Below, piece by piece: positions 1,392-2,248 of a stretch of DNA of 64,000 bases (position 1 is the first letter of the stretch; each line of letters opens with the position of its first letter). Below the pieces are notes generated by a model that saw only the letters and a list, made by a program, of their open reading frames with translations, did not search any database and was not told the DNA's origin. Position numbers and translations under genes: made by a program. This DNA is from Escherichia phage vB_Eco_Jura, in sequence record LR999871; one strand, 5' to 3'.

Positions 1392-1763
1392 ATGAACCGT
1401 ATTACTGAAGAACATATTGATAGCATCATTGAAGGTGCTTACTACTTCAATATGGCTAAAGCTGTAGAGAATGAAGCAGTTCTGATTCCTGAAGACCATT
1501 TAAAAGCATTGAGTACAACTACTGTTTGTGCACTGGTTCTTTCTAATGGATTCACTATTACTGGTAAATCTGCCTGTGTTGACCCTAACACCTTCAATGA
1601 GGAGTTAGGTAAGAAATATGCTTACGAACAGGCCGTTGATAAGGTATGGGAATTGGAAGGCTATCTGCTTAAGCAAAACCTGCATGAGAAAGCTCAGAGC
1701 CAGGAAATGCTAAAAGAGTTCCTGCAAGATGACAACTGTGAAGGTGGGGGCTGTAAAATCTAA
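1392..1763 (+). CDS. Hypothetical protein (123 aa)
   Basis: ORF with AAGGAAG RBS; stop overlaps the next start (TAATG), suggesting translational coupling. Confidence 0.6.
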   Translation: MNRITEEHIDSIIEGAYYFNMAKAVENEAVLIPEDHLKALSTTTVCALVLSNGFTITGKSACVDPNTFNEELGKKYAYEQAVDKVWELEGYLLKQNLHEKAQSQEMLKEFLQDDNCEGGGCKI

Positions 1764-2248
1764 TGGAAATTAAAGTTCACTTTACTAATTACATCGGAAC
1801 CAAATGTGTAAATGGTTTCCCGATGAACAAGGCTGACTACTGCAAACTTCGTGGTTGGGATGTACCTGCTAATGAAGACCCGTTAGAAGAGGGTTACTTA
1901 GTAGAGTACCCCGATTCTAAACCTAACCATGAGCAATTCCGTGGTTATATTAGCTGGTCACCTAAAGCTGCATTTGAAGAGGCATACTGTGATGTAGACA
2001 AAGGCTGCACGTTTGGCCACGCAGTAGAGCTTATGAAATCAGGTTTTAGAATGTCCCGTAAAGGCTGGAATGGAAAAGGAATGTATATCACATTAGTATC
2101 CGGTGAAAACTGGGCTATGGATAAACATGAAAATACCATATGCATGAAACAGGATTGGCTGGGTATTAAAACCGCTGACAATGAATTTATGCCCTGGGTT
2201 CCATCTCAATCAGATGTATTAGCAGAAGATTGGGTACTAGCTCAGTAA
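1763..2248 (+). CDS. Two-domain protein with C-terminal DUF2829 (Tad2-like) domain; candidate signal-nucleotide sponge
   Basis: C-terminal 75 aa carry FGxAxE...RKGWNGKGMY...PWVPSQSDVLAEDW, recalled as the DUF2829/Tad2 signature; about 85-aa N-terminal extension of unknown fold. Confidence 0.6.
   Translation: MEIKVHFTNYIGTKCVNGFPMNKADYCKLRGWDVPANEDPLEEGYLVEYPDSKPNHEQFRGYISWSPKAAFEEAYCDVDKGCTFGHAVELMKSGFRMSRKGWNGKGMYITLVSGENWAMDKHENTICMKQDWLGIKTADNEFMPWVPSQSDVLAEDWVLAQ

Follow-up and report, generated by a model that had tools for sequence, protein, structure and literature searches.

Sponges are one of the main routes by which phages counter signalling immunity (CBASS, Thoeris, Pycsar), and recent new sponge families were spotted through their fusion to known ones. 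Tad2 is represented by SPO1 Tad2 (Gp34.65; PDB 8SME/8SMF/8SMG) and Myroides ModTad2 (PDB 8V3E/9EIB), single-domain proteins of 88-89 aa that belong to Pfam family PF11195. Contacts with gcADPR are made in SPO1 Tad2 by W25, N26, I63, T65, D67, H71, W73, S76, T78 and D79 (bioRxiv 2023.05.01.538930). Four of five additional Tad2 homologs tested inhibited Thoeris, the fifth failing against type I Thoeris, and ligand specificities differ between Tad2 clades. Known sponges are habitually fused one to another. The Acb4-Tad2 protein of Pasteurella phage Pm86 and the Acb4-Sequestin protein of Pseudomonas phage Ab09 (gp59) bring anti-CBASS and anti-Thoeris sponge modules together in one expression unit, and each of these fusions blocked both CBASS and Thoeris in experiments. 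Sequestin (PF21825), a short phage domain found mostly as a stand-alone protein, was itself discovered via fusions to Tad2 and Acb4; it forms all-helical dimers and has been proven to bind 3'cADPR. Viral sponges have been described by a set of criteria comprising short length, homo-oligomeric assembly, a positively charged pocket at protomer interfaces and ligand binding (bioRxiv 2025.07.12.664507).

RyR Tad (Pectobacterium phage vB_PatP_CB1 gp68) likewise lies in the hotspot of an N4-like phage, and consists of an N-terminal domain followed by a sponge domain (bioRxiv 10.64898/2026.06.04.730250). In its crystal structure, the N-domain dimerises through a swap of strand beta-1, in a dimer to which the second domain contributes as well (bioRxiv 10.64898/2026.06.04.730250); the N-terminal sheet has five strands and is completed by the beta-1 swapped between the two protomers. 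Residues 1-86 of CB1 gp68, the sole N-domain tested, were inactive on their own against type I Thoeris (bioRxiv 10.64898/2026.06.04.730250).

The window analysed here is a stretch of 64,000 nucleotides from Escherichia phage vB_Eco_Jura (LR999871), and the gene of interest, gp49, occupies positions 1763..2248 on the + strand. With a probability of roughly 0.65, gp49 is a putative sponge of the Tad2 type, directed at ADP-ribose signals derived from TIR proteins, with a second and independent module added at its N-terminus. As a gene, gp49 is an unremarkable, already annotated member of its family (its RefSeq annotation reads DUF2829 domain-containing protein), and the interest lies in the N-domain.

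A two-gene unit at the vRNAP end of a known hotspot

DNA identity between the window and the phages N4 and AlfredRasser is 97.5-98.9%; the DNA is that of a coliphage of the N4 type (Enquatrovirus), whose gp49 is the ORF at 1763..2248, with 159 of 160 residues identical to N4 gp49. In N4-like phages, the interval from primase to vRNAP has been described as an anti-signalling hotspot. The gp48-gp49 unit lies at the vRNAP end of this hotspot, of which the vRNAP gene forms the 3' boundary, and, given that the hotspot is known, the locus is no isolated oddity.

On the upstream side, four tRNA genes (Asn-GTT, Ser-TGA, Thr-TGT, Pro-TGG) are located at 212..890 on the + strand (ARAGORN; Rfam tRNA matches of 50-77 bits), and a terminator-like hairpin of 12 pairs followed by a T-run (1337..1366, + strand; found by hairpin scan and read in the sequence) splits the tRNA region from the gp48-gp49 unit. 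The ortholog of gp48 (123 aa; 1392..1763, + strand) was assigned from Pfam, a PDB match and comparison with N4, and the ortholog of gp49 (161 aa, ATG start, two domains) from the ORF list and comparison with N4. The two ORFs overlap in the sequence TAATG (1761..1765, + strand), in which the stop codon TAA of gp48 (1761-1763) and the start codon ATG of gp49 (1763-1765) have one base in common; read from the sequence, this overlap is the signature of a predicted translational coupling of the two genes. Downstream of gp49, a GC-rich hairpin with T-runs on both strands (2257..2274; hairpin scan) would act as a bidirectional terminator towards the convergent virion RNA polymerase gene, an ortholog of N4 gp50 with a 3506-aa ORF at 2283..12803 on the - strand (ORF; annotation of matching phage records). 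Altogether, gp48 and gp49 form a two-gene unit with a terminator on either side. The preliminary description of this DNA had already placed the ORF beside a tRNA cluster, convergent to the vRNAP gene and coupled to an upstream 123-aa ORF, and all of this agrees with the layout found. A scan for sigma-70-like promoters upstream of gp48 on the + strand, with N4 middle promoters outside its scope, found none. A match to Rfam STnc100 at 2206-2286 is attributed to chance, being below threshold (27 bits against 47) and overlapping the terminator.

The upstream gene had been described as unknown, which can be corrected: it corresponds to N4 gp48 and belongs to the Acb4 family (PF13876, E 6.8e-35, 119.9 bits, cutoff 27), with a match to a solved Acb4 structure (PDB 9e4w) at E 9e-4. 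The gp48 of the window differs from that of N4 (A0MZD7) in three of 123 residues, and A0MZD7 is present in a listing of 1,331 Acb4 homologs. In N4, gp48 is both necessary, as shown by knock-down, and sufficient for activation of Panoptes (PMC12657230). It is an Acb4 sponge for cyclic dinucleotides, as demonstrated for N4 in the literature. Ligand contacts were mapped by hand onto gp48, using an ungapped alignment to Acb4 and the 3'3'-cGAMP contact list of SPO1 Acb4. By this hand mapping, the contacts F48->F54, F62->F68, N63->N69 and I66->L72 are kept and K36->T42, E49->T55, V56->C62, Y57->V63, T70->Y76 and K81->E87 are changed, so that residues for stacking and for the adenine pocket are retained and residues reading the guanine are altered. 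Because of the TAATG coupling, knock-downs of gp48 in N4 may be polar on gp49.

The order of the two genes in N4, Acb4 (gp48) and then Tad2 (gp49), is that of the Pm86 fusion. However, the N4 sponges are separate polypeptides linked solely by the TAATG overlap, with the N-domain between them, whereas those of Pm86 and Ab09 are fused.

The Tad2 domain of gp49

The C-terminal half of gp49 was proposed in the preliminary description to be a Tad2-like (DUF2829) domain, on the basis of motifs that are present exactly in the ORF at 1763..2248 (+ strand), and family, fold and pocket residues now agree on this assignment. The domain covers residues 83-159 of gp49 (2009..2239, + strand), where PF11195 matches with E 8.2e-24 (84.4 bits, cutoff 25) over profile positions 2-72 of 73. 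Matches to the PDB chains of ModTad2, Tad2 and SPO1 Tad2 were obtained at E about 1e-15, with about 40-44% identity to SPO1 Tad2 and ModTad2 over about 80 residues; matches of this strength could not arise by chance. At the level of the whole protein, phrog_872 matches gp49 over its full length (E 5.7e-67), and NCBIfam and PADLOC gave no match for the full-length sequence.

An AlphaFold2 model of full-length gp49 (pLDDT 87.5) recovers the Tad2 fold, its Tad2 domain being made of helices 84-92 and 149-153 and strands 97-99, 108-112, 132-136, 142-144 and 157-159. Foldseek matched the model to the Tad2 structures 8smf, 8wje, 8v3e and 9eib with probability 1.00, E 1e-7 to 5e-6 and target TM-scores of 0.7-0.87. 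By residue mapping, the gcADPR contacts of SPO1 Tad2 correspond in gp49 to W102, N103, I135, T137, D139, M143, W145, S148, S150 and D151; eight of the ten are identical, T78 is conservatively replaced by Ser, and H71, which makes a water-mediated contact in SPO1 Tad2, is changed to Met. The gcADPR-contacting GWNG loop and W..SQ(S/T)D..AEDW segment are kept between gp49 and both SPO1 Tad2 and ModTad2, and the pocket positions are mostly invariant or nearly so across 40 two-domain homologs. The difference from these single-domain proteins lies in the extra 73-aa domain of gp49, placed directly before helix alpha-1.

Which ligand gp49 binds is not readable from its sequence, because activity against type I Thoeris was lacking in one of five further Tad2 homologs and ligand preference varies from clade to clade. 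A second pocket for cyclic dinucleotides of the HgmTad2 type is unlikely in gp49, as it needs a 41-residue insertion; the matching segment of gp49 is short, hypervariable among homologs and modelled with low confidence. An anti-CRISPR role (AcrIIA7) was also set aside, that activity being irreproducible in the literature. No published report of anti-Thoeris or anti-CBASS activity of gp49 was found, nor any paper mentioning gp49 together with Tad2 or Bas69 with Thoeris or CBASS phenotypes.

We infer the oligomeric state, the ligands and the in vivo anti-defence effect of gp49 as follows. Its Tad2 domain would form a tetramer, as SPO1 and Mod Tad2 do, in which the GWNG loop (W102/N103) and the W145...S148-x-S150-D151 segment would line pockets between protomers. 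These pockets would sequester alarm molecules made by TIR proteins, 3'cADPR/gcADPR and possibly His-ADPR or N7-cADPR, with the effect that a Thoeris-type effector would never be switched on.

The N-domain, its relatives and its partners

Residues 8-80 of gp49 (1784..2002, + strand) form a small, beta-rich, sponge-associated domain with two helices. The separate N-terminal extension noticed earlier is real and well folded, with a pLDDT of 91.5 when the domain is modelled alone by AlphaFold2. The monomer model contains strands 8-11, 15-20, 44-49 and 62-67 and helices 23-30 and 68-75. Its structural neighbours are Tudor/SH3-like protein-binding barrels, matched weakly (Z <= 4.7), among them the RNA-polymerase-interacting domains of CarD and Mfd. 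A Pfam search with the N-domain alone returned no match, and its profile found none among PDB sequences at E up to 10.

The N-terminus of RyR Tad is homologous. The gp49 N-domain aligns with that of CB1 gp68 by hhalign (95.9%, E 6e-9, 61 columns) and by hmmsearch (E 5e-9), and the two N-termini are reciprocal PHROG matches (phrog_872, phrog_9467, phrog_18865). The single-chain model of the gp49 N-domain is compatible with the sheet of RyR Tad, although a single chain cannot display the swap. The CB1 gp68 copy, the one found inactive, is divergent, lacking many residues that are near-invariant in the N-domain family, and the C-terminal domains differ, that of RyR Tad having a helical RyR Repeat12-like fold and that of gp49 being Tad2.

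The N-domain profile finds 2,709 cluster representatives, and stand-alone proteins of 70-79 aa account for 53 of the 120 best matches. Conservation reaches 90% or more at about 30 of the 73 positions, in the 63 stand-alone copies compared as well as in the 124 fused ones; Lys, Arg, Trp and Tyr are frequent among these near-invariant residues (about 40% of positions), which include exposed charged and aromatic ones. This very high conservation extends across phages of both Gram-negative and Gram-positive hosts. The N-domain (about 73 aa) is an autonomous domain. Stand-alone copies are encoded directly after ribonucleotide reductase, before glutaredoxin or ThyX, or after dUTPase, and not beside obvious anti-defence genes.

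Among the best 150 of the 2,709 representatives, the N-domain is fused to Tad2 in 49, to Sequestin in 43, to Acb4 in 13 and to Acb2/Tad1 in three, and about 35 have a partner without a recognised family. Fusions to Lockin and to Sequestin are also present in published homolog tables, and triple fusions were found in the orders N-domain-Sequestin-Tad2 and N-domain-Tad2-Sequestin. The N-domain is nearly always N-terminal of its partner, and its partners come from no fewer than six sponge families unrelated to one another (Tad2, Sequestin, Acb4, Acb2/Tad1, Lockin and RyR Tad). The family is very large, strongly conserved and found on essentially every known sponge family; it has no Pfam entry, and is for that reason invisible to a Pfam-based fusion screen. 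Its motif is absent from all 84 sponges in the table of proteins tested by Hadary et al., and has no match in Table S2, which holds the candidates of a structure-guided sponge screen (bioRxiv 2025.07.12.664507). At 73 aa, the domain falls within the length expected of viral signal sponges (bioRxiv 2025.07.12.664507).

Identity with three described families was rejected. Lockin forms beta-rich hexamers of another sequence and is instead a fusion partner, TadIV-1 is helical and confined to T4-like phages, and Sequestin is helical. Indirect evidence also speaks against Tad3-Tad8: the N-domain has no homologous PDB sequence, and authors who mark Tad3 in the hotspot leave the homologous domain of RyR Tad unassigned.

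Possible roles of the N-domain

Two roles had been suggested for the extension, an altered ligand specificity and a second function. The latter fits better and the former less well, because the N-domain is widespread alone, occurs on at least six sponge families and shows the same near-invariant residues either way. The N-domain of gp49 would dimerise like the RyR Tad N-terminus, by a swap of its first beta-strand, and is predicted to contribute a second, separate activity. Rather than tuning the Tad2 pocket, it would most probably bind a further small signal or else a conserved target in the host. Its place directly before alpha-1, the tetramerisation helix, could also change assembly. Tentatively, and as something possible rather than probable, the N-domain is proposed to be an autonomous anti-defence module at the centre of the fusion network, which could represent a novel family of signal-binding sponges or else a companion of sponges in general. 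If so, gp48-gp49 would comprise three immune-signal antagonists, and the roughly 35 of 150 representatives with family-less partners would point to further sponge families. If active in its own right, the N-domain would fill a gap among the means by which phages counter signalling immunity and would help in tracing others.

Of the more specific accounts, one takes the N-domain itself as an unrecognised sponge, which would make gp49 a double sponge comparable to the fusions of Acb4 with Tad2 or Sequestin and, with gp48, give N4 three signal-binding modules in about 850 bases. It is somewhat unlikely. The distribution of the N-domain, mostly alone, phage-borne and fused to sponges, is like that of Sequestin before its discovery, although the N-domain is beta-rich and unrelated to Sequestin in sequence; the triple fusions with Sequestin and Tad2, the short length, the dimerisation of the RyR Tad homolog, the Lys/Arg/Trp/Tyr-rich residues common to free and fused copies, and an escape from the Pfam-based screen for want of a Pfam entry all speak for it. 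However, gp68_N of RyR Tad showed no effect on type I Thoeris, the domain is absent among the candidates of the structure-guided screen, and its fold weakly resembles protein-binding barrels. The inactivity of gp68_N alone, together with its beta-1 swap, would rather suit a structural accessory, that is, a strand-swapped handle for dimerisation or stabilisation that aids assembly, avidity or half-life of the sponge that follows. The almost constant position before the partner is consistent with such a handle, as is the compatibility of a dimer with dimeric, tetrameric and hexameric partners, and a purely structural N-domain would reveal a shared assembly principle of unrelated sponges. We hold this account to be unlikely: Tad2, Acb4, Sequestin and Lockin oligomerise without the N-domain, a handle would not explain the common 73-aa stand-alone gene, and it has no need for some 40% of near-invariant positions, equally in free and fused forms.

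It is quite improbable that the N-domain binds a protein, whether a signal-producing enzyme or effector, as Tad3-Tad8 do with ThsB/ThsA, or a host sensor of sponges, and so adds direct inhibition. Tudor/SH3-like modules that bind proteins (CarD, Mfd) are among its weak structural neighbours, phage inhibitors that directly bind TIR proteins exist, and a generic sponge-linked role would account for its presence on sponges whose ligands belong to different classes; yet such high conservation, in phages of Gram-negative as well as Gram-positive bacteria, is hard to square with a fast-evolving protein target, and authors annotating Tad3 in the same hotspot assign no function to the homologous fold. 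Moreover, N4 is restricted by Panoptes via its Acb4 despite encoding gp49 (PMC12657230), so that the N-domain gives sponges no obvious protection from that sensor. Very remote is a role outside defence, in which both domains of gp49 would serve nucleotide metabolism or regulation in the phage by binding ordinary nucleotides or metabolites. Such a role is suggested by the ribonucleotide reductase, glutaredoxin, ThyX and dUTPase genes that adjoin stand-alone N-domain genes, but every characterised DUF2829 protein is an immune-signal sponge, the ligand pocket of gp49 is conserved, its immediate neighbour gp48 is a validated sponge and the great majority of N-domain partners belong to sponge families.

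N4 is a convenient genetic system for the Tad2-type domain, because this domain adjoins a validated Acb4. A gene pair made of an Acb4-like gene and an N-domain-Tad2 gene is also found in Gamaleyavirus ECBP1.

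gp49 and its Tad2-like domain

The plus-strand ORF at 1763-2248 is present as it had been described, with an ATG start, 161 aa and the quoted motifs. It corresponds to gp49 of phage N4 (159 of 160 residues identical), and the surrounding DNA (1300-2300) shares 97.5% identity with Escherichia phage N4 and 98.9% with AlfredRasser/Bas69. The proposed C-terminal Tad2-like (DUF2829) domain is borne out by profile, fold and pocket. Residues 83-159 match Pfam PF11195 (Tad2-like; E 8.2e-24, 84.4 bits against a cutoff of 25) and, by sequence, the solved chains of ModTad2, Tad2 and SPO1 Tad2 (E about 1e-15). 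When an AlphaFold2 model (40 homologs; mean pLDDT 87.5, pTM 0.71) was searched with Foldseek, the top 24 matches, comprising every match with E at most 0.001, were all Tad2-family chains, including HgmTad2/AcrIIA7 and SptTad2; SPO1 and Mod Tad2 chains reached target TM-scores of 0.70-0.87. The residues of SPO1 Tad2 that contact 1''-3' gcADPR (W25, N26, I63, T65, D67, H71, W73, S76, T78 and D79; bioRxiv 2023.05.01.538930) have as counterparts, in order, W102, N103, I135, T137, D139, M143, W145, S148, S150 and D151, so that eight of ten contacts are retained unchanged, one is replaced conservatively and one, water-mediated, is altered. Type I Thoeris was inhibited by four of five additional Tad2 homologs assayed, and ligands of other Tad2 clades are His-ADPR, N7-cADPR or cUMP. 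gp49 is unlikely to have an additional pocket for cyclic dinucleotides like that of HgmTad2, which relies on a 41-residue insertion, because the corresponding segment is short and modeled with low confidence.

Assignment of gp49 to the Tad2 family is not new, since its N4 ortholog is already labeled "DUF2829 domain-containing protein" in RefSeq and both the Tad2 genes of the hotspot described below and the Acb4 of N4 have been published. No paper linking gp49 with Tad2 was found. The interest lies rather in the N-terminal domain (residues 8-80, hereafter N-domain), for which the size of the family and its joining to essentially all recognized sponge families, the phage proteins that sequester immune signals, are added here.

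The window represents an N4-type genome in rotated order, starting just past the position of N4 gp47; the late genes occupy the minus strand as far as about 36.6 kb, and plus-strand ORFs, presumably early and middle genes, follow from about 38.5 kb. The tRNA cluster (four genes, 212-890) and the convergent vRNAP gene reported near gp49 were both seen; a strong terminator-like hairpin (1337-1366) lies ahead of gp48, and a bidirectional hairpin (2257-2274) between gp49 and the vRNAP gene. The mechanical vRNAP ORF opens with TTG and encodes 3506 aa; because the annotated N4 CDS (34523-45025) encodes 3500 aa, translation probably begins a few codons further in. From the last tRNA to gp48 (890-1391), roughly 500 bases are free of notable ORFs and of Rfam matches. 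A phage-specific (N4 RNAPII) promoter could be located in them; 3' of the terminator, 25 very AT-rich bases precede the gp48 ribosome-binding site.

The upstream Acb4-type gene

The 123-aa ORF upstream (1392-1763) had been called unknown and coupled to gp49. The overlap stands, as its TAA stop (1761-1763) and the gp49 ATG (1763-1765) have one base in common (TAATG), but the gene is N4 gp48, a member of the PF13876/Acb4 family (E 6.8e-35), also matched by a solved Acb4 (9e4w, E 9e-4). These are cyclic-dinucleotide sponges, of which 8/8 purified homologs bound 3'3'-cGAMP, and N4 gp48 (A0MZD7), differing from gp48 of the window at 3 of 123 residues, is included in the Acb4 homolog table of the same study (bioRxiv 2024.12.30.630793). 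For triggering Panoptes, a defense that senses sponges, N4 Acb4 was shown to be both sufficient and, by knock-down, required, in an account from which gp49 is absent (Doherty et al., PMC12657230). Because the gp49 start lies within the gp48 stop, the CRISPRi-ART knock-down of gp48 in that work could also lower gp49 translation, and phenotypes credited to Acb4 knock-down may include gp49 loss. In N4-like phages, the primase-to-vRNAP interval has been described as an anti-signaling hotspot with Tad2, Tad3, Acb4 and Sequestin genes (Fedorova et al., bioRxiv 10.64898/2026.06.04.730250). In the Gamaleyavirus ECBP1, an Acb4-like gene (L014 2492-2872; product 46% identical to gp48 overall) is likewise followed by a gp49-type gene. 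The two products end in C-D-G-G-G-C-T-I and, in the window (about 1737-1760), C-E-G-G-G-C-K-I; this conserved CxGGGC tail lies outside the Acb4 core (gp48 residues 4-97 in PF13876) and perhaps belongs with the "extensions" described for some Acb4 homologs. PF13876 is titled "Phage protein (N4 Gp49/phage Sf6 gene 66)", yet its match in N4 is gp48 in the GenBank and RefSeq numbering followed here, a mismatch that can mislead annotation.

Partners of the N-domain

The N-domain has no Pfam model and belongs to none of the sponge families recognized as of April 2026 (Tad1, Tad2, Acb2, Acb4, Sequestin, Lockin and TadIV-1). Among its best 150 representatives, partners recognized by Pfam were Tad2-like in 49, Sequestin (PF21825) in 43, Acb4 (PF13876) in 13 and the Acb2/Tad1 hairpin in 3, with single cases of WDGH, AP2 and HNH. 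In domain parsing, the chief architectures had the N-domain followed by either Tad2 or Sequestin; there were also triple fusions (N-domain-Sequestin-Tad2 and N-domain-Tad2-Sequestin), a few reversed orders, and 51 proteins whose partners, at least 45 aa long, were not assigned, 13-14 of them Acb4-like. At least 85 Sequestin and 2 Lockin homologs listed by Tal et al. in supplementary tables (bioRxiv 2025.07.12.664507) also carry an N-terminal N-domain, as confirmed by profile (E 1e-13 to 1e-42); that study's fusion screen was Pfam-based, and the N-domain is mentioned nowhere in its main text. No sponge sequence in the tested-protein table of Hadary et al. contains the N-domain motif, and no experimental test of gp49 or any N-domain + Tad2 protein was found in the literature.

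In many proteins, the N-domain is followed by a C-terminal partner of 45-170 aa (P0321, P0330, P0337, P0340 and P0361; P0242, P0243 and P0246; about 40 singletons). In a spot-check of 10, five had no Pfam match and a few others were divergent Tad2 or Sequestin; by the logic of fusion, the unmatched partners are candidates for further unrecognized sponge families. In another protein (P0301, 354 aa), the Tad2 domain behind the N-domain is cut in two stretches by an HNH-AP2 homing-endonuclease module (HNH 182-207, AP2 218-267, best-scoring Tad2 stretch 264-353), reflecting either a mobile element within a sponge gene or gene-calling read-through.

Possible roles of gp48, gp49 and the N-domain

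It is proposed that gp48 and gp49 are produced together, that the gp49 Tad2 domain, probably the tetramer of its family, would take up TIR-derived ADP-ribose signals and so keep Thoeris-type effectors off, and that gp48 would remove cyclic dinucleotides. Such signal removal is probable, given strong homology and the conserved pocket, and the Thoeris inhibition seen with other Tad2 homologs supports it. For the N-domain, a second, independent activity exerted from a dimeric scaffold is favored, and it may well be a further ligand-binding module, because sponges are habitually fused to sponges and the domain is abundant alone. This reading competes mainly with two others: a dimerization handle whose role is purely structural, and an inhibitor that acts by binding protein. 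The N-terminal domain of RyR Tad (gp68 of Pectobacterium phage vB_PatP_CB1) is homologous to the N-domain (hhalign 95.9%, E 6e-9; hmmsearch E 5e-9; PHROG matches in common) and forms a crystal dimer via a swapped strand beta-1. Caution is required about a second activity, since this sole assayed homolog, as residues 1-86 alone, showed no activity against type I Thoeris; the CB1 copy is, however, divergent from the family and without many conserved residues. Of the 73 N-domain positions, about 30 are conserved at 90% or more both where the domain stands alone (n=63) and where it is fused (n=124); Lys, Arg, Trp, Tyr, Glu, Asp and Asn are among them. The constraint is therefore a property of the N-domain itself and not of a particular partner.

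The gene settings of stand-alone copies (loci L003 3573-4225, L006 1063-3407, L012 309-4120 and L009 716-3249), which are not obvious anti-defense islands, also call for caution about a second activity. Stand-alone genes overlap or abut nucleotide-metabolism genes. The N-domain gene comes after dUTPase, is flanked by class II ribonucleotide reductase and glutaredoxin, or has the small subunit of class I ribonucleotide reductase on one side and, past one small ORF, ThyX on the other. These positions may reflect either mere early-region clustering or a functional link. In one phage, the stand-alone gene follows the portal gene.
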